DNA of 20,000 bases from an uncultured virus (IMG/VR IMGVR_UViG_3300028805_000098) (lineage: Duplodnaviria; Heunggongvirae; Uroviricota; Caudoviricetes). The stretch spans positions 54,585 to 74,584 of IMG/VR virus record IMGVR_UViG_3300028805_000098; one strand, 5' to 3'. Positions 1,655-19,455 of this stretch are shown piece after piece. Position 1 is the first letter of the stretch, and every line of letters starts with the position of its first letter. A program made the position numbers and the translations under genes. The notes beneath the pieces were generated by a model that was not told where the DNA came from, ran no database searches, and saw only the letters and a list, made by a program, of their open reading frames with translations.

Positions 1655-3940
1655 ATGAATCTTGAACGCGTTATCAAACGCGACGGTTCGTTGGTTTCAT
1701 ACGACCGATCGAAAATTTACAAAGCGATTGTTGGAGCTAACAACGCTTCCGTCGAACAAATGACCGAACGCGATCTTGAGAATATCATTGAACAGATAGA
1801 GTCCGATATTGGTGATCGTACTGAAATATCAGTCGAAGATATTCAAGATGTCGTGGAACGTCGTCTTATGCAACACGGATTTTTCGAGATAGCCAAGAAG
1901 TATATTTGTTACAGATATAAACATATGCTTCGTCGGGAATCGAAGAAGAATCTCATGCAAACTTATAAAGACATTTTGTTTACTGATGCCTCAGCGATGG
2001 ACGATAAGAGGGAAAATGCAAATATTAACACTGATGGTCCAATGGGCATAATGCTTAAACTTGGATCAGATGGAGCAAAAGAATTCGCGCTTAATACCCA
2101 ACCAAAAGAATTTGCTGAAGCACATCGTCAACATTTCATTCATGAACACGATAACGATTTCTCAATGATAACGTTGAATTGTTGTCAAATTGATCTACTG
2201 AAACTGTTTCACGGTGGGTTTTCAACAGGTCATGGTCATATAAGAGAACCAGGCTCTATTCGATCATATGCAGCTTTAGCATGTGTGGCAATTCAATCAG
2301 ACCAGAACGACTGTTTCGGAGGCCAGTCACTAAATGCAGAAGATTATGCGATGGCTGAAGGGATCAGAAAAACATTCGTGAAAGAAATTATATCTAAAAC
2401 GGTTGAATTTGGACAATTTGTGACATCGAACATGTACGACAAGCACACGGTTAGTAAAGAAGTCAAAGAAGAATTCGATAGAACAAAGATACATTACGTC
2501 GAAGATAAAGACATTAAGAATTCTAGTGATTATTGGGAAACCATAGAAGAAATATGGAGAGTTTTCTGTAAAGTTTTCATGGAAGTCGAGCGAAACGAAT
2601 GGGATGGTCTTCATTCAATTTATGAAATAGCAAAAGATGCCACTGAAGAAGAGACACGTCAAGCTATGGAAGCAATGGTGTATAATTTTAATAGCTTACA
2701 CGCTAGGTCAGGCGGGCAAGTTCCGTTCAGTTCTATCAACTTTGGTATGGATACTTCTCCAGAGGGACGATTGGCAATAAGAGAAACTCTCAACGCTATT
2801 GATGCTGGAATGGGAAAGGGAGAATCTCCACTATTTCCAATTTCGATTTTTCAGATTAAATCAGGAATCAATTTCAACCCAGGCGATCCAAATTACGACT
2901 TATTTAAGCGTGCATGTGAAGTGAGTGCTAAGAGGTTGTACCCGAACTTTGTATCGTGTGATGCCACTTTTAACTTGAAGTATTATAAACCAGGAAATTA
3001 TAATACATACGCTGCAACGATGGGATGCCGTACCCGTGTTATCGGAAATGTGAATGGACCTGAAGAAACTGGTGGAAGAGGAAATTTTAGTTTTGTGACT
3101 CTTAATCTTCCAAAATTTGCACTCGAAGCAAAACGTCAACTTGGAAACAACGCACCACAAGAAGAGATCATAAAACGTTTCTACGAGATATACGATCACT
3201 ATATTCAACTTAGTCACGATTATCTTCTTTACCGTTTTCAAATTATTGCAGATAAACACGTTTTCAATTTTCCGTTTTTGATGGGTCAAGGCGTTTGGAT
3301 GGGAAGCGATGAATTATCGCCAAATGATACTATACGAAAAGTTTTGAAAAATGCTACCCTTTCTATTGGATTCTGTGGTCTTGCAGAAACTTTAATAGCA
3401 TTAACAGGAAAACATCATGGAGAGAATGAGGATTCGCAACGGTTCGGATTGGAAATCGTCCAACATCTTCGTGACAAAACCGACAAGTTTAAAGTTGAAG
3501 AAAAAATGAATTGGTCAACCTTTTCAACTCCAGCCGAAGGGACAGCAAATACATTTCAAAAAGCGAATCGCAAAGATTATGGAATCATACGTGGTGTCAC
3601 CGATAGATTGTACATCACGAACAGTTTCCATGTTCCTGTGTATTATAAGATACGAGCTATCGATAAAATTCGTATCGAAGCACCATACCATGAAAAATGT
3701 GATGCTGGCGCGATAAGCTATATTGAGTACAATGGGGATCCTCTCCAAAATGTAGAAGCTTTTGAAAAACTTGTACGAGCCATGCACGATGCAAATATGG
3801 GATATTTCAGTGTGAACCACCCTGTCGACCGCGACCCGGTCTGTGGTTATACCGGTATTATAAAAAACGAATGCCCACACTGCAAACGCAAAGAACACGA
3901 ATCGTGGCATCACAAAACCGTACCGATGATTTCAATCTGA
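1655..3940 (+). CDS. nrdD: Anaerobic (class III) ribonucleoside-triphosphate reductase large subunit with N-terminal ATP cone; lacks the C-terminal glycyl-radical loop
   Basis: VIKRDG ATP cone; NCCQID, QSDQNDCFGGQ, RSGGQVPFSSINFG, TMGCRT, GRGNFSFVTLNLP, TPAEG, YITNSFHVPV, DPVCGY...CPHC; AAGGAGGT RBS. Confidence 0.96.
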   Translation: MNLERVIKRDGSLVSYDRSKIYKAIVGANNASVEQMTERDLENIIEQIESDIGDRTEISVEDIQDVVERRLMQHGFFEIAKKYICYRYKHMLRRESKKNLMQTYKDILFTDASAMDDKRENANINTDGPMGIMLKLGSDGAKEFALNTQPKEFAEAHRQHFIHEHDNDFSMITLNCCQIDLLKLFHGGFSTGHGHIREPGSIRSYAALACVAIQSDQNDCFGGQSLNAEDYAMAEGIRKTFVKEIISKTVEFGQFVTSNMYDKHTVSKEVKEEFDRTKIHYVEDKDIKNSSDYWETIEEIWRVFCKVFMEVERNEWDGLHSIYEIAKDATEEETRQAMEAMVYNFNSLHARSGGQVPFSSINFGMDTSPEGRLAIRETLNAIDAGMGKGESPLFPISIFQIKSGINFNPGDPNYDLFKRACEVSAKRLYPNFVSCDATFNLKYYKPGNYNTYAATMGCRTRVIGNVNGPEETGGRGNFSFVTLNLPKFALEAKRQLGNNAPQEEIIKRFYEIYDHYIQLSHDYLLYRFQIIADKHVFNFPFLMGQGVWMGSDELSPNDTIRKVLKNATLSIGFCGLAETLIALTGKHHGENEDSQRFGLEIVQHLRDKTDKFKVEEKMNWSTFSTPAEGTANTFQKANRKDYGIIRGVTDRLYITNSFHVPVYYKIRAIDKIRIEAPYHEKCDAGAISYIEYNGDPLQNVEAFEKLVRAMHDANMGYFSVNHPVDRDPVCGYTGIIKNECPHCKRKEHESWHHKTVPMISI

Positions 3941-3953
3941 CAAACTACAAAAA

Positions 3954-4005
3954 GCGTGACAAAGCCAGAACCTACAAGGTTCTGGCTTATTGTCCGCAAA
4001 AAAAA
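3954..4005. terminator. Hairpin terminator after nrdD (likely bidirectional)
   Basis: GCGtGACAAAGCCAGAACCT-aca-AGGTTCTGGCTtaTTGTCCGC; nearly duplicated at 4996-5036. Confidence 0.75.
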
Positions 4006-4006
4006 C

Positions 4007-4143
4007 GACTCCCAGGAAGATAGGCCTAGCCGCCAATTCTGTTACGCGGCGACTTCGAGGCGGGTTAATCCGAAGTCTACTATATAAGCCGAGTACAACT
4101 TAGGCGTTTGTCACCAATAACCTATCTTCCCTTAAAGTGGAGC
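4007..4143 (-). ncRNA. Candidate structured non-coding RNA (closing stem plus three hairpins); strand tentative
   Basis: GGAAGATAGG (4015-4024) pairs with CCTATCTTCC (4121-4130), enclosing GCCGC/GCGGC, GACTTCG/CGAAGTC and GCC..GGC hairpins. GC-rich, no ORF. On the minus strand it is preceded by AACA-N6-TAG and TATAAT and followed by U8. Confidence 0.55.
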
Positions 4144-4207
4144 TATTGCCCGCACATTAGTATTATAGATGCATCTAATGATATGTTGACACGATATAAT
4201 TTTTCAA

Positions 4208-4329
4208 TCTGACATCGCCCACCCTCCTAAGTATATATTATCGTGGTGTATGAGAGTTTAGTAGGAGTTCTCTTGTACTAAATTGACGAAAACCTACGAT
4301 CCACATCTTTAAGGAGGATGTTTGAAATG
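4208..4329 (+). repeat. Cassette leader copy 1 (promoter plus structured 5' UTR plus RBS)
   Basis: 4232-4323 is identical to 13356-13447 (92 bp) and nearly identical to 5074-5164. Confidence 0.95.
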
Positions 4330-4893
4330 AAAAACGCTCTGGTAAATTCGATCGTCTCCGTTATTAACGTCATTTGGGGTCTCACAGGAGGGGCAATTCT
4401 GTTCGGCGCGATGTACGTTATCGCGTACTTCAAAGTCAAAAACGGAACTGCGTCGTTGTACACCGATGTGAGATACGCGGATACTGGAAAGAAATTGACC
4501 ATATGGTCATTCTTGAAAAGGTTCGCCGTCCAGATGGAAGCAGTCCCGTTAGTAACAGATCAGGGGCTGGTTGCTTGCGTTCACGGAGGATTCGCAGAAT
4601 TCATTATCGAAGGCAAGAAAGAAAATCATTTCTCGATGGCGAACAAATTCGACAAGGGAGAGTACACACTCATCTCTTGTTGTAATGGTAGCCATCAAGA
4701 CTTCCATTTCAACGGGCGCAGTTTCAAACGCGACAAAAACACTATCAGTTTATATGAAACAATACTACTTCCATATAACAATGGAAAGCTTGTGTGTTGG
4801 GCTGACAAGACAATACGTCTTTACACCTGCGCGCAATCGGTGCAGTATTGGAAATATATTCCGAAGGTTATCTGCGCAAAAGGCTGGAAATGA
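4327..4893 (+). CDS. Hypothetical early protein with N-terminal transmembrane helix; possible HG...SC peptidase-like motif
   Basis: Start placed at the second ATG for correct SD spacing; hydrophobic IVSVINVIWGLTGGAILFGAMYVIAYF; LVACVHG and LISCCNG. Confidence 0.8.
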   Translation: MKNALVNSIVSVINVIWGLTGGAILFGAMYVIAYFKVKNGTASLYTDVRYADTGKKLTIWSFLKRFAVQMEAVPLVTDQGLVACVHGGFAEFIIEGKKENHFSMANKFDKGEYTLISCCNGSHQDFHFNGRSFKRDKNTISLYETILLPYNNGKLVCWADKTIRLYTCAQSVQYWKYIPKVICAKGWK

Positions 4894-4899
4894 TTCACG

Positions 4900-4963
4900 A
4901 AAGAATCTGTGTCGTAAATCGGCACAGACACCGCACACATTTGCGGCACAGATTCTTTTTCCC
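4900..4963 (+). terminator. Long bistable hairpin terminator (family member 1)
   Basis: AAGAATCTGTGTCGTAAAT pairs with ATTTGCGGCACAGATTCTT and is followed by T's; homologous to 13884-13953. Confidence 0.8.
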
Positions 4964-4995
4964 TCAAGGAGATATTTTTTACCTCCCACAACAAG

Positions 4996-5036
4996 AAGCG
5001 TGACAAAGCCAGAACCTTAATAGGTTCTGGCTTTTT
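4996..5036 (+). terminator. Second terminator, duplicate of the post-nrdD hairpin
   Basis: AAGCGTGACAAAGCCAGAACCT...AGGTTCTGGCTT is shared with 3952-3988; followed by a T tract. Confidence 0.8.
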
Positions 5037-5049
5037 CTCCTTTTTACGT

Positions 5050-5170
5050 TCCGACATTACCCTCTCCCATAAGTATATATTATCGTGGTGTATAGGAGTT
5101 TAGTAGGAGTTCTCTTGTACTAAATTGCGAAAACCTACGATCCACATCTTTAAGGAGGATGTTTGAAATG
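5050..5170 (+). repeat. Cassette leader copy 2
   Basis: Differs from copy 1 by two substitutions and one deleted A between TATATATTAT and the start codon. Confidence 0.95.
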
Positions 5171-5815
5171 AGCATTTACGTCAATGGTGTGAAATCAGAT
5201 GATTTGAACGACGAGGAGAGAAAGGCGTTCGAAAACGCTAAGGCGCTCAAATCACGTCATGTTCCGAGAGGAACTGACGGAGTGGTCTGGGCGCACGGCC
5301 TCAACGCTGTCAACAGATCGCAGTCGCCTGCGGTCGCACTCGAAAAACTGTTGACCATTCTTGGCACCGGAGCCGAGATAAGTTGCTCGAAACCCGGGCC
5401 TGAATCTAGGCTCATGAACGGAGGACTCGGCGTAATAGGCGTTTATGTGAAAGGCGAAACGTCGTTAATGGCCTCCGTTGATTGCGGGAGCTACACGATT
5501 GATGGGAAGCGTTACCCATCAATTCGTGAGGAGTTCATCGTTGACGACTATGAAAAACTCGACGACGAATACAGCGCCTACACCGAGGCGTTTGTCGCTC
5601 CGCAAAAAATCGTGGGGTTCTGGATTTCGAAAAAGGCGTACGAAAACTACGTCACGAATTTCGAATCCGGAGAAGCGGAAAAAGTTTACAAGAAACGCTA
5701 CGGCGAAAATTGGAAAGTCTTCTTTCGGTTTGAGTATCTCAAACCAAGAGAAGGTTTCATCAGCTGTTTCAACATGTTGAAAGACATGGGTATTCCTATG
5801 ACTTTCGCATATTGA
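5168..5815 (+). CDS. Hypothetical early protein, possible ADP-ribosyltransferase-like fold
   Basis: Leader, RBS and terminator present; WAHG / ISCS / YTEAFV arrangement. Confidence 0.8.
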   Translation: MSIYVNGVKSDDLNDEERKAFENAKALKSRHVPRGTDGVVWAHGLNAVNRSQSPAVALEKLLTILGTGAEISCSKPGPESRLMNGGLGVIGVYVKGETSLMASVDCGSYTIDGKRYPSIREEFIVDDYEKLDDEYSAYTEAFVAPQKIVGFWISKKAYENYVTNFESGEAEKVYKKRYGENWKVFFRFEYLKPREGFISCFNMLKDMGIPMTFAY

Positions 5816-7312: not shown

Positions 7313-7331
7313 AATCGAAAATATATATTAT
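7301..7331 (+). promoter_or_regulatory. Early-type promoter GACAT-N16-TATATATTAT
   Basis: Same 21-nt offset between GACAT (7301) and TATATATTAT (7322) as in all four leaders. Confidence 0.75.
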
Positions 7332-7334
7332 ATA

Positions 7335-7550
7335 GGTATAAGACGCAGTGAAATTAGTAGCTGCGACTTAAATCTAATAAATGTGGGGGGAGGTAAATGA
7401 AACGTAAAACCACCCTCCTGTTACTGAAAGGAGGTGACGACCATGGGTGACAATAGCACTTGTGGAACTCGCCGCTAATCAGTAGCAGCAGTTCAAAAAA
7501 CGGTTAAACCGGGGAGCAAATTCTATCAGATTGCTCCCCGGTTTTTTTTT
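7335..7550 (+). ncRNA. Candidate small structured transcript carrying two micro-ORFs (7397-7450, 17 aa; 7443-7478, 11 aa)
   Basis: Lies between a promoter and a strong terminator, has several hairpins and two strong SD sequences, and has no long ORF. Confidence 0.5.
7506..7550 (+). terminator. Strong intrinsic terminator between convergent units
   Basis: AAACCGGGGAGCAA-attctatcaga-TTGCTCCCCGGTTT plus T tract. Confidence 0.9.
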
Positions 7551-7567
7551 CTCGTTTTAATCCCAAA

Positions 7568-11167: not shown

Positions 11168-12055
11168 ATGGAAGTAAGCAGCGAGGAAATTCGCTTGTAC
11201 CGTGCAGTCGGCGAAGAAAGCACGGTCAAATCGGCAGCGAGCAAATTGCCCGATCCGTTTGAAGACAACGACGAATTCGAAAAAGAAGAGGAGGCAGAGC
11301 CGGTGGTTAAACCTGAACCTACTCCGAAACCCAAGCAGCAAGTACATCAACCGCGTCAACAACAGCGCGAACAGCGTCAGCCGAATCCGCAACCGCAACG
11401 TCCGAAAGACGGAGGTGGTAAACCTTTCACTCGTCCACAATCCGACGTGAGCGATCCGAATGGTTTGTATAACTACGAAGGCGGATGTGTCATTGGGAAC
11501 CGCGCGAACGACAATCGTCTCGGACTCGATCCCAGTGGGTCGATCTTCACGTTCACGAGTCGCGACATTTCGACGTATTTCGAAAAATACTTCGAGCATC
11601 ACGGTTACCGCTACATCTATTTCGGGGATGGCGCTGCAGTACTGAACGACATTCCCAAGATGTATCTCATCTTTCCGAAGATGGAACATCTTGTCGTGAA
11701 TGGTCGCTCGGCTAACGACATCGAACTCGAATTGCTCGGCGGCAAAGCGCGTGGCGCACACGTTCGTTTGGATGCAAAATTGAAAGAGCTTGTCAAACCG
11801 TTTGTCGATACGAGCAAACTCGTAGTGAACGAGTCTCAGAAACGCGACAAAAACGGCAGAGCATTTTGCTATATCGAACTCAACCCGGACGCCGTTCTGA
11901 GTGCGCTGTTCTTGCACAACAGAGCTTACCGTGTCATTCTGCTCGATACAGCTCAGCAAGGCAGCAATGTGATGTACCGAGTCGCACGTTTGCGCGAACT
12001 CGGCAATGGCGGCAGTGACATCCGCGAAATCATCGAACACATCACGACGAAATAA
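11168..12055 (+). CDS. Hypothetical early protein with acidic and Pro/Gln-rich disordered N-terminus
   Basis: AAGGAGG RBS, early motif upstream, hairpin downstream; GC-richer codons. Confidence 0.85.
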   Translation: MEVSSEEIRLYRAVGEESTVKSAASKLPDPFEDNDEFEKEEEAEPVVKPEPTPKPKQQVHQPRQQQREQRQPNPQPQRPKDGGGKPFTRPQSDVSDPNGLYNYEGGCVIGNRANDNRLGLDPSGSIFTFTSRDISTYFEKYFEHHGYRYIYFGDGAAVLNDIPKMYLIFPKMEHLVVNGRSANDIELELLGGKARGAHVRLDAKLKELVKPFVDTSKLVVNESQKRDKNGRAFCYIELNPDAVLSALFLHNRAYRVILLDTAQQGSNVMYRVARLRELGNGGSDIREIIEHITTK

Positions 12056-13284: not shown

Positions 13285-13331
13285 GTTATCTATCTTTTTC
13301 ATGTATTATAGCAATATACCTAATTTTCCGA

Positions 13332-13453
13332 TCTGACATCGCCCCCACCTATGAATATATATTATCGTGGTGTATGAGAGTTTAGTAGGAGTTCTCTTGT
13401 ACTAAATTGACGAAAACCTACGATCCACATCTTTAAGGAGGATGTTTATCATG
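13332..13453 (+). repeat. Cassette leader copy 3
   Basis: 92 bp identical to copy 1, 9 kb away; also shares ATCTGACATCGCCC. Confidence 0.95.
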
Positions 13454-13879
13454 GAAAAGACTTCGGCAATCGCAATCGCAACGTTCGCAATGTTGAATGG
13501 TTTTGTCGACCTGCACGACAACAAAGCCAAACAACTCGATGTTGCAATCATTGCGGAAAACGACAACGGCAACTGGTTCCCCTGCTTCGCCACGAGAAAA
13601 GCGCGTTACTTCAGCGTCAACCCTCTCTGGAAAAGCAAAGGACAGGTAACACTGTCCAAAGCGGCTTTGGGACCGGTCGTTGACATGCGCGTTGATTCGC
13701 TGGAAACAGCGATCGAGAAACTCAACGCGTTTTATGCGACCCCGTCAATCGACAACGGTTTCGAACGCTGGTATTTCGAACTCGTCGAAAAACCGGTTGT
13801 TAAAACCCGCTTTGAAAAAATGATTGACGATTTCAACAATTCGCAAAAATTGATCCACATCAATCTCGTCGAAGCTTAA
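13451..13879 (+). CDS. Hypothetical early protein (142 aa)
   Basis: Leader and RBS with start at the second ATG; 3' hairpin follows. Confidence 0.85.
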   Translation: MEKTSAIAIATFAMLNGFVDLHDNKAKQLDVAIIAENDNGNWFPCFATRKARYFSVNPLWKSKGQVTLSKAALGPVVDMRVDSLETAIEKLNAFYATPSIDNGFERWYFELVEKPVVKTRFEKMIDDFNNSQKLIHINLVEA

Positions 13880-13883
13880 AACC

Positions 13884-13953
13884 AAAAAGAGTCCGCGCCG
13901 TATTACGGTATCGGACGCCGCATTCAACAAATGCGGTGCGGATTCTTTTTCCC
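13884..13953 (+). terminator. Long bistable hairpin terminator (family member 2)
   Basis: AAAAAGAGTCCGCGCCGTATT pairs with AATGCGGTGCGGATTCTTTTT. Confidence 0.8.
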
Positions 13954-18246: not shown

Positions 18247-19437
18247 TTACCATCCTCTGACCCATGTTTCCATCAATGAAACATTATTTTTGGTATGACG
18301 ATAACCGCTTCCAGATTCTTTTACACTATAACGCACGAACTGCCCCAAAATGCTACGGCATTCATCCACGATTTCTTGATACATCTCTTTCGTTATTGAG
18401 GCAGCCGCCGTTTGATATGACAAAGCGTATTTGGCGACAGACGCGGCTCCGTTTACACCTCTTCTATATGCATCAACATCATACTGTTCTTTATTAACGT
18501 TATCGATCAAGTTCGATACTTTTTCAGCATACGAATCTGCGTCTTCGGAAATAGCATTCGCATTTTCTTCTATTTCACTAATAATGGTCTTTTCATCTTC
18601 AACCCATCGAATCATTTCATCACGGGAAAAAGTGTTTTTTGAACCAAAACCTTTACAAGATTTCTTTTCACCATTTGTGATAGCTTTCTTAAGTGCTGTT
18701 TTGAATTTAGAGATCGTTGTTGTCCCAGTGGCACTTTCGCCTTTCAAACTTTTAAACATTCGTGCGTCGATAGATTTTTTCAGTTTTTTGACTTCATCGT
18801 CGGTACCACCCCAAGCGGCGTCGTCGCTGTCTCCAGATTCTCGAACGATGCGCCAACTTTCCTCTGCTTGTGTAGCAGCGTTTCCACCTGTAGCAGCGTT
18901 TCCACCTGTAGCAGCGTTTCCACCTGTAGCAGCGTTTCCACCTGCCTTTTTAGCAATTTTTTCCACAAGTTTATCGAAATCGATCGAATCACTAAAAGTG
19001 TTACTGTCGTCTCTAACTTGCTTCATAGGGTGGAGATTCCAAGCATGAGCTTCAAACTCAAAATCTTTGTCTTCTTTGCCTTTAATGTATTCTTTATATT
19101 TCTTGATGAAACTCGCATTGCTAGAGAACATAGCACGGAAAAACTTGACAACGGAATTAAACCACGATTTTATCTTTTTTCCGATGGAGATAAAAAAATC
19201 TTTGATTTTCTTCCAAGCACTAGCAATGACGCCTTCGTACATAACAACTTTCTGAGTTGCACTGTGTTTAGTGTCCATAATCCAGTTTTCGTACATATTT
19301 GCCATCATAACTTCGGAATCACCAAAATAAATTTCCAGATCACAGAAAGATTCGTGCATTGCGAAAGCGAGACCGTCATGCGGAACATCAAATGTATTAC
19401 CAGAACCAATAGGTCTAGCGTTTCCAAAAAATCTCAT
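18247..19437 (-). CDS. Putative internal head/virion protein (paralog)
   Basis: AAGGAGG RBS before MRFFGN; MYEG followed by IASAWKKIKDFFISIGKKIKSWF...FIKKYKE. Confidence 0.7.
   Translation of the reverse strand: MRFFGNARPIGSGNTFDVPHDGLAFAMHESFCDLEIYFGDSEVMMANMYENWIMDTKHSATQKVVMYEGVIASAWKKIKDFFISIGKKIKSWFNSVVKFFRAMFSSNASFIKKYKEYIKGKEDKDFEFEAHAWNLHPMKQVRDDSNTFSDSIDFDKLVEKIAKKAGGNAATGGNAATGGNAATGGNAATQAEESWRIVRESGDSDDAAWGGTDDEVKKLKKSIDARMFKSLKGESATGTTTISKFKTALKKAITNGEKKSCKGFGSKNTFSRDEMIRWVEDEKTIISEIEENANAISEDADSYAEKVSNLIDNVNKEQYDVDAYRRGVNGAASVAKYALSYQTAAASITKEMYQEIVDECRSILGQFVRYSVKESGSGYRHTKNNVSLMETWVRGW
18871..18942. repeat. In-frame tandem repeat, 4 x 18 bp (GGNAAT)
   Basis: Four perfect copies of TGTAGCAGCGTTTCCACC. 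Confidence 0.97.
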
Positions 19438-19455
19438 TACAATTCCTCCTTTCAT

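Follow-up and report, generated by a model that had tools for sequence, protein, structure and literature searches.

The analyzed stretch of DNA, in the following called the window, comprises 20,000 nt and lies at the very end of a virus record of 74.6 kb (G000). The record is estimated to be 30% complete, and therefore, its source is a giant phage. Sequences of this phage are present in public metagenome runs from sheep and goat guts. A Pfam scan of the proteins on the window side yielded a match to a phiKZ-type internal head protein, a head-tail joining protein, and endolysins, and the rest of the record encodes a sigma-70 region 4 protein, a chaperonin, a prohead protease, and a tail tube protein (Pfam). 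A second record, G001, was identical to G000 across the 7,937 nt that were compared, and thus, it is not an independent copy.

The region under study lies downstream of nrdD, the core gene of an anaerobic ribonucleotide reductase (1655-3940, plus strand, 761 aa; Pfam NRDD 2.9e-165, plus an ATP-cone). The order after nrdD is a stem-loop terminator unit (3944-3995, plus strand, hairpin at 3962-3988), an extra block of about 204 nt that is a candidate small RNA gene with a promoter on the minus strand (3996-4199, delimited by pairwise alignment), and a promoter/5′-UTR module (4200-4330, plus strand). The module has a total length of about 130 nt and consists of the promoter CTGACA-17-TATATA, a conserved leader of about 90 nt, the SD motif AAGGAGG, and an ATG at position 4327, which is probably the true start of the next gene. 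An earlier note on this DNA had described the region of the block as GC-rich and free of open reading frames. This description turned out to be correct. The GC content of 3998-4157 is 0.48, compared with roughly 0.40 for the window, and no ORF of at least 60 aa is present in 3941-4317, the longest overlapping ORFs having 50, 43, 37, and 34 aa.

The stem-loop unit and the promoter/5′-UTR module are parts of a repeated cassette. Copies of the module are located at 280-395, 4200-4330, 5042-5171, and 13324-13454 of the window and at 11360, 3805 (minus strand), and 53999 of G000, and the copies found with blastn have identities of 72-94%. Some of the module copies share the stem-loop terminator, which is placed before the module, and the window contains two copies of the stem-loop unit, the second one at 4988-5040 (repeat comparison; inverted repeats I10 and I2). 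Pairwise alignment revealed that the intergenic region 4988-5171 matches the region downstream of nrdD on both sides of a single gap, and that the stem-loop unit and the module abut directly there, without the 204 nt. Judged from this alignment, the block 3996-4199 is a discrete insert. It is single-copy in each record, and the repeat comparison showed that the cassette regions of the phage are visibly reshuffled.

A similar layout has been reported for the PeSL cassettes of T4-type phages. They are described as small repeated units in which a strong promoter of the sigma70-like type is combined with a stem-loop terminator; they are found beside non-essential genes, at sites where insertion and replacement occur (Arbiol et al. 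2010, PMC2839356). The cassette found here shares the repetition, with at least seven copies in 74.6 kb, and the block is situated exactly between the stem-loop and the promoter. The setting can thus be called PeSL-like, with seven copies of the predicted promoter/5′-UTR and two copies of the predicted stem-loop terminator. In contrast to the PeSL cassettes as described there, the present cassette additionally includes the conserved 5′-UTR of about 90 nt with an SD motif and a start codon, and the cargo in the block is non-coding and in reverse orientation. The likeness concerns the layout.

The secondary structure of the block was predicted for both strands. The perfect 10-bp closing stem proposed in the earlier note was recovered, with GGAAGATAGG at 4015-4024 pairing with CCTATCTTCC at 4121-4130 (inverted repeat I14), and so was the outer pairing of CTCC (4009-4012) with GGAG (4139-4142). 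Taken by itself, an inverted repeat of 10 bp is no rarity here, because the window contains 16 inverted pairs within 150 nt. The proposed extension of the closing stem by G-U pairs was also found, and on the minus strand, the stem P1 comprises 13 bp including 3 G-U pairs, formed by the 5′ strand 4119-4131 and the 3′ strand 4014-4026, with a mean pair probability of 0.97. It is flanked by the outer stem, in which GCUCC (4139-4143) pairs with GGAGU (4008-4012) and which competes with a hairpin in the 5′ leader. P1 encloses four predicted minus-strand hairpins: H1 (4103-4115), a weak hairpin of 4 bp; H2 (4085-4102), with 7 bp and the loop UACU; H3 (4051-4077), with 8 bp and an 11-nt loop; and H4 (4029-4050), with 5 G-C pairs and a 12-nt loop. 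The pair probabilities are 0.88-0.97 for P1 and H1-H4, compared with 0.17 for the outer stem. The three internal hairpins and the four-way junction that had been proposed earlier are thus an adequate description of the plus-strand fold, in which the hairpins occur at the places given for them. In the better-supported minus-strand fold, the third hairpin is split into two and the junction becomes five-way, with H1 as its weak member. A pseudoknot between GCGGG in the 5′ leader and CCCGC in the loop of H3 is possible on paper; it lacks covariation, and the start predicted for a diverged copy of the block would shorten the leader.

Quantification of the predicted stabilities did not yield equal results for the two strands. 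The minus-strand fold of about 155 nt has a predicted free energy of -55.9 kcal/mol (z -2.93), and none of 200 shuffled sequences was as stable; for the plus-strand fold, the respective values are -46.5 kcal/mol, z -2.42, and 5 of 200. Eight of the 42 pairs of the minus strand are G-U pairs, which turn into C/A mismatches on the plus strand, and the minus-strand structure has an energy of -51.8 kcal/mol, compared with -41.7 kcal/mol for its mirror image on the plus strand. After GC correction, and in comparison with 497 windows of 160 nt taken across the 20-kb stretch, the minus-strand fold ranked 12th (z -2.33) and the plus-strand fold 99th (z -0.77), and windows at 4881, 5721, and 7401 were more stable than the block. 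According to these predictions, the block is clearly structured on one strand, yet it is not the most structured place in the window.

Two other structured regions were noted during this comparison. The most stable 160-nt window on the plus strand (z -3.56) is found at 7313-7567, a region in which the promoter-like sequence TATATATTAT and two mini-ORFs (one of about 17 codons, the other of about 11) occur together with a strong terminator at 7506-7544. The most stable window on the minus strand (z -4.3) contains, together with the next stem-loop, a hairpin terminator with 20-nt arms at 4900-4958, behind ORF 4318-4893, and its 3′ arm is repeated at 13927-13953.

The difference between the strands bears on the possibility that the block acts on the plus strand, either as a structured 3′-UTR of nrdD or as the spacer of a transcript that reads through from nrdD to the next gene. 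The U-tract of the terminator copy next to nrdD (3944-3995) is degraded, GGCTTATTGTCC versus GGCTTTTTCTCC in the other copy, and therefore, read-through is plausible; the z value of the plus-strand fold against shuffled sequences is also consistent with a plus-strand element. However, the GC-corrected rank of this fold, the loss of eight pairs to C/A mismatches, and the run of eight A residues before the stem, which would have no role on the plus strand, all argue against it, as does the consensus fold with the diverged copy described below, which is poorer on the plus strand (-35.4) than on the minus strand (-46.7). A plus-strand function is thus regarded as very improbable.

Next, the flanks of the minus-strand fold were inspected for transcription signals. 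Upstream, at 4162-4189 on the minus strand, lies the sigma70-like site TCAACA-16-TATAAT, which agrees with the consensus at 10 of 12 positions and would place the transcription start near 4155. A second site, TTGAAA-18-TATCAT, overlaps with it (4178-4207, minus strand) and also matches at 10 of 12 positions; both assignments are made by consensus match alone. Three promoter-like sites were found in 3800-4400, compared with 1.2 expected, and two of these are on the minus strand of the block, so that both consensus matches could provide the candidate gene with a promoter of its own. At the other end, a stretch of eight U residues (3998-4005, minus strand; A8 on the plus strand) follows 2 nt behind the outer stem and is the presumed 3′ end. 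A terminator-like site was predicted here, and the arrangement of outer stem plus P1, 2 nt, and U8 (4005-3998) resembles an intrinsic terminator, with an atypical long-range stem. These signals had in part been noticed before, and the sequences concerned, AACATATCATTAG at 4187-4175, TATAAT at 4167-4162, and U8 at 3998-4005, are located where the earlier note had placed them on the minus strand.

The same is true for the minus-strand GACA-N6-TAA motif GACAAACGCCTAA at 4112-4100. The sequence AACA-N6-TA is the late promoter motif of AR9/phiKZ-type phages. In the 20-kb window, this motif is not enriched but under-represented, occurring 7 times, compared with 15.3 expected, and at least 7 occurrences were found in 199 of 200 shuffled sequences. 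The two short AACA/GACA-type motifs of the block are not above chance. The earlier speculation that the RNA might mimic a promoter lacks support, because AACA-N6-TA is not enriched. In addition, no covariance-model match to 6S RNA was obtained up to an E value of 10, the fold of the block is a multi-branch junction, and the phage has a sigma-70 region 4 protein and promoter cassettes of the sigma70 type.

The predicted minus-strand promoter points toward nrdD, and thus, the block could also be the structured 5′ part of a longer antisense RNA that reads through U8 and the stem-loop into nrdD and controls the nrdD mRNA in cis. For such a transcript, the stem-loop (3988-3962 on the minus strand) would be a poor terminator, as no more than UUUGU comes after it. 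Yet U8 directly behind a stem of 13 + 5 bp is a strong stop signal. Public RNA libraries were inspected as well, and in two runs (X3 and X6), Logan contigs identical to nrdD were found at 3571-3780, 3792-3955, 3400-3545, and 3665-3824. These nrdD contigs are strandless and contain no evidence for antisense transcripts. No contig of the two runs covered 3998-4190; at a depth of about 3, and with strandless contigs and possible DNA carry-over, this is no evidence either for or against transcription of the block. Taken together, control of nrdD by a long antisense RNA is judged to be quite improbable.

A natural variant of the block was found in a public contig of 392 nt (run X5, record 22), which aligns to 3998-4321 and differs by about 7%. 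Over this length, the diverged copy has 26 substitutions and 16 gap letters, and 3 of the 26 substitutions fall outside the listed positions. The alignment tool does not report differences within about 30 nt of the contig end (3998-4027), and therefore, the variant is uninformative on the 3′ strands of P1 and of the outer stem. In 3998-4156, 11 substitutions and one inserted base were listed in 159 nt, while for the 122 nt of the adjoining part of the cassette (4200-4321), the list contains 12 substitutions and 5 insertions with a total of 10 letters. Past 4321, the variant contig is unlike the window, and thus, block and cassette precede a different or diverged gene there.

Eight of the 11 listed substitutions are at unpaired positions, i.e., in loops, junctions, or the leader. 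Two further changes, C to T at 4053 and G to A at 4075, affect partners in H3 and convert a C-G pair into a U-A pair, which is one compensatory pair. The change at 4103 breaks the outer pair of H1, the loop of which also contains the extra base. In H2, only the loop is changed (4092), in H4 only the loop ends are changed (4034 and 4045), and no difference was listed in the 5′ strand of P1 (4119-4131). The finding that at most 3 of 11 substitutions are in paired positions has a binomial P of 0.08 and is based on one variant. The consensus fold of the two sequences retains the outer stem, P1, H2, H3, and H4.

The promoter-like sites are affected to different extents. In 4166-4199, which includes the -35 element and the spacer of the TCAACA site, no substitution was listed for the variant. 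A deletion of 5 nt at 4160-4165 falls on TATAAT, and we infer from the listed differences that AATAAT with a 17-nt spacer remains. The -35 element of the second site is altered by differences at 4200 and 4208 and by an insertion behind 4204.

The compensatory change in H3 would equally fit a DNA hairpin. Together with the perfect 10-bp inverted repeat, it could indicate that the block functions at the DNA level, as a protein-binding inverted repeat, a recombination site, or a feature of a replication origin. In contrast, the dependence of the fold on G-U pairs favors an RNA from one strand, and the block contains neither iterons nor an AT-rich stretch for unwinding, is present in a single copy, and is not bounded by terminal inverted repeats or target duplications. 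A role as a DNA element is thus the least probable of the explanations that were considered. A MITE-like element was also rejected, as there is one copy per record, no target duplication flanks the block, and the inverted repeat is set back from the block ends by 12 and 56 nt.

The earlier note had not recognized the block as a tRNA, an SRP RNA, or a known ribozyme, and the family searches gave the same answer. ARAGORN detected no tRNA or tmRNA gene in the window or in the rest of the record, and the 4227 models of Rfam 15 did not yield any match at the gathering threshold in the 20-kb window or in the other 58 kb of the record. When matches up to an E value of 10 were included for 3900-4330 and 3990-4170, ftsZ-DE was the only one inside the block, with 10.9 bits (E 8.9) versus a gathering score of 72.2. 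The nrdD gene of phage T4 carries a group I intron. An intron was discarded as an explanation for the block, as no Rfam intron model matched and no glycyl-radical exon was found in any downstream frame or in the 93 kb examined.

Homologues were searched at the levels of sequence and structure. A blastn search with the block against 50,697 phage records gave no match. A covariance model of the minus-strand fold built from the single sequence (R1) matched two of five whole records, i.e., G000 and G001, and it did not match the three giant-phage records with relatives of nrdD (48-66% identity; G002-G004). Scans of IMG/VR with exact patterns found G001 as the sole record. The pattern of the P1 core occurred at 39 loci in JGI metagenomes, one of which passed R1 and is the contig of G001, and at 21 loci in GTDB genomes, none of which passed. 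R1 gave a single match in 150 sampled genomes of one gut-relevant class (22.1 bits, E 0.0115 per genome), which lacks H1 and H2 and was judged to be a chance match, and none in 151 sampled genomes of a second gut-relevant class or in two centre genomes. A scan with a cassette motif retrieved eight further records, none of which matched R1, and alignment showed that only two of these (records G308 and G312; loci L079 and L086) carry the true cassette, while the other six share a short motif. A probe for the 10-nt inverted repeat matched five loci of one Verrucomicrobia MAG (L053, L056, L062, L065, and L070), none of which matches R1; a dispersed repeat that is particular to this genome and happens to have identical arms is the probable reason. 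As far as these searches reach, G000, the identical G001, and the one variant with about 7% difference are all known copies. The block fits no described RNA family, and the sequence evidence describes a real, discrete element that is plausibly transcribed.

The position of the block was compared with the same position in relatives, and this comparison revealed an unusual organization of the ribonucleotide reductase. NrdD of this phage (1655-3940) ends right after the zinc ribbon, covers positions 1-533 of the 562 positions of Pfam NRDD, and lacks the glycyl-radical domain. In a more distant relative (L005: 6489-6758), the core is fused with the glycyl-radical motif, which reads RRITGYLVG..FNNAK. 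In another relative (L004: 6287-6568), the motif is encoded by a separate ORF of 93 aa directly after nrdD, and in a third one (L003: 7359-7592), the separate ORF ends behind RRITG, with a gene for an HNH endonuclease next to it on the downstream side. For the lineage of the present phage, a homologous stand-alone glycyl-radical ORF (E 9.6e-16) is present in the cassette-bearing record G312 (L089: 1495-1794, minus strand), which may belong to the same genome as G000 or to a separate one; this ORF has 99 aa when it starts at a GTG and about 95 aa when it starts at the ATG behind an SD motif. The consensus of the motif in the small ORFs is RI[RA]RITGYL...N[ND]AK. As deduced from these ORFs, the class III ribonucleotide reductase of the clade is split into a core and a glycyl-radical protein of about 95 aa. 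In the phage analyzed here, the slot of the separate ORF holds the stem-loop, the block, and the cassette, and no glycyl-radical motif was detected in the 93 kb that G000 and the additional end of G001 make up together, also not with tblastn.

This occupation of a gene slot raises the question of whether the block is functionless filler, i.e., a recombination leftover between cassettes or a decayed remnant in the slot of the glycyl-radical gene, with an incidental fold, promoter, and U8. Such an origin would be in agreement with the restriction to one lineage, with the protein genes that L004 and L003 have at the position of the block, with the visible reshuffling of cassette regions, and with the modest statistics (a stability rank of 12 among 497 windows and a P of 0.08 for the bias toward unpaired positions). 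It is contradicted to some extent by the compensatory pair in H3, by the smaller degree of change in the block than in the adjoining cassette of the variant, and by the correct order of a promoter-like site, a fold with eight G-U pairs, and U8 on one and the same strand. Moreover, the block has neither DNA similarity to the small ORFs of L003 and L004 nor a convincing reading frame. A remnant of the glycyl-radical ORF in particular was rejected: a stretch in frame 2 of the block is faintly similar to RRITGYL, but neither a DNA comparison with L003 and L004 nor tblastn yielded a match, the similarity was attributed to chance, and both paired changes of the variant would alter an amino acid in this frame. 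Overall, functionless filler is considered to be rather unlikely.

The explanation that we prefer, if only tentatively, is that the block is an independent minus-strand gene for a structured small RNA of about 155 nt (from about 4155 to about 3998), which is carried as a "moron"-type insert within one of the repeated terminator-promoter cassettes of the phage. The promoter-like site, the fold with its G-U pairs, and U8 in the right order on one strand support the assignment to the minus strand. A gene is further supported by the discreteness of the insert, by the compensatory pair and the mostly unpaired changes in the variant, by the -35 element and spacer for which no substitution was listed, and by the higher GC content in combination with the lack of a credible ORF. 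Several observations count against a gene: the 5-nt deletion of the variant affects TATAAT, H1 is not conserved, the outer stem has a low pair probability, the stability is good and not extreme, the terminator is a long-range stem instead of a compact hairpin, the conservation is deduced from one variant, and no homologue was found in the three records with nrdD relatives or in G308 and G312. While the proposed boundaries and the fold of the gene come from the sequence, its transcription, the exact ends of the RNA, and its mode of action are deductions.

The small RNA gene might work as follows. A sigma70-type RNA polymerase holoenzyme would start at TCAACA-16-TATAAT, and the RNA would fold into the closing stem of 13 bp, which holds a multi-branch core with firm hairpins H2, H3, and H4 and the weak H1. 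The long stem would close directly before U8, and transcription would end there. The likeliest guess for the function is that the RNA does not pair as an antisense RNA but acts in trans via its shape, with a protein of the phage or the host being bound or titrated. We lean toward shape-dependent protein binding because the changes of the variant are situated in loops and because duplexes of the loops were no better than those of shuffled sequences; this is a weak inference. Specifically, loop-restricted duplexes with the 5′-UTRs of four cassettes were equalled or bettered in 36 to 96 of 100 shuffles. Duplexes of the whole RNA with 73 translation-start regions were dropped, as only unrealistic full-length duplexes were obtained.

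Small RNAs of phages are known as a kind, e.g., the stable RNAs "species 1 and 2" of T4, and the block is a plausible candidate addition to them. Further examples come from the giant phage 201phi2-1, in which sRNAs were mapped (PMC11512511), and from E. coli, in which an sRNA of a prophage has been described (PMC13502914). The block resembles the phage sRNAs in that it is short, non-coding, and self-contained, with a predicted sigma70-like promoter and an end made of a stem and a U-run. It differs in that a multi-branch fold provides its predicted terminator, in the form of the long closing stem and not of a compact 3′ hairpin, and in being a candidate that was predicted from DNA. The likeness to 6S RNA is confined to the proposed action of a small structured RNA on a protein, and nothing further, as the block lacks a long interrupted duplex with a central bubble. 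The pRNA of phi29 and the bacterial Y RNA (YrlA) are structured RNAs that are closed by a stem of the 5′ and 3′ ends and serve as protein scaffolds. The block shares with them the paired ends, which form a long stem closing a multi-branch core, and a size of about 120-170 nt, but apart from ftsZ-DE, it does not match any Rfam model up to an E value of 10. The protein scaffold on which the earlier note had speculated is a guess. Genes for Ro/Rsr, for RtcB, or for phi29-type packaging were not found among the 64 proteins that were scanned with Pfam.

A bolder version of the small RNA gene can be formulated, which we regard as distinctly unlikely in its entirety. The small structured RNAs of phages would include a class that has so far not been described, and the block would be its first representative, an "RNA moron" that is moved between slots by promoter/terminator cassettes, that landed in the slot where relatives keep the gene for the separate glycyl-radical subunit of their split ribonucleotide reductase, and that binds a protein of the phage or of its host while a rumen bacterium is being infected. 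If the small RNA gene is real, the structured small RNAs from uncultivated giant rumen phages, of which very few are known, would be joined by an orphan, and the gene would show that non-coding genes can be cargo of mobile promoter-terminator cassettes, which reshuffle the accessory regions of phages. At present, the block is a candidate from a single lineage, and its value is that of a lead and not of a finding.

The split class III ribonucleotide reductase may be of more general interest than the RNA candidate. Among the papers retrieved by a literature search, none names such a split in its title or abstract. In relatives, the nrdD frame is broken into three to four pieces (L003: 3989-7334 and 7592-8260; L005: 3119-6758). 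The broken frames and the ORF that is cut exactly after RRITG beside an HNH gene suggest the presence of introns or other intervening elements in these sequences.

Three further observations concern other parts of the record. An 86-nt direct repeat with 95% identity (95-180 and 1026-1111 of the window) links ORF 2-268, which runs off the start of the window, and the endolysin-like ORF 980-1582, and the starts of the two ORFs look paralogous. Tandem repeats of 18 nt, TGTAGCAGCGTTTCCACC, are present in about four to five copies at 18853-18942, within the minus-strand ORF 18247-19455. Outside of the window, at 40838-41434 of G000 (L073: 2838-3434), a protein of 198 aa is encoded that contains a domain similar to the Thoeris anti-defence protein Tad2 (Pfam E 2.2e-05), with a score of 25.3 bits versus a cutoff of 25.
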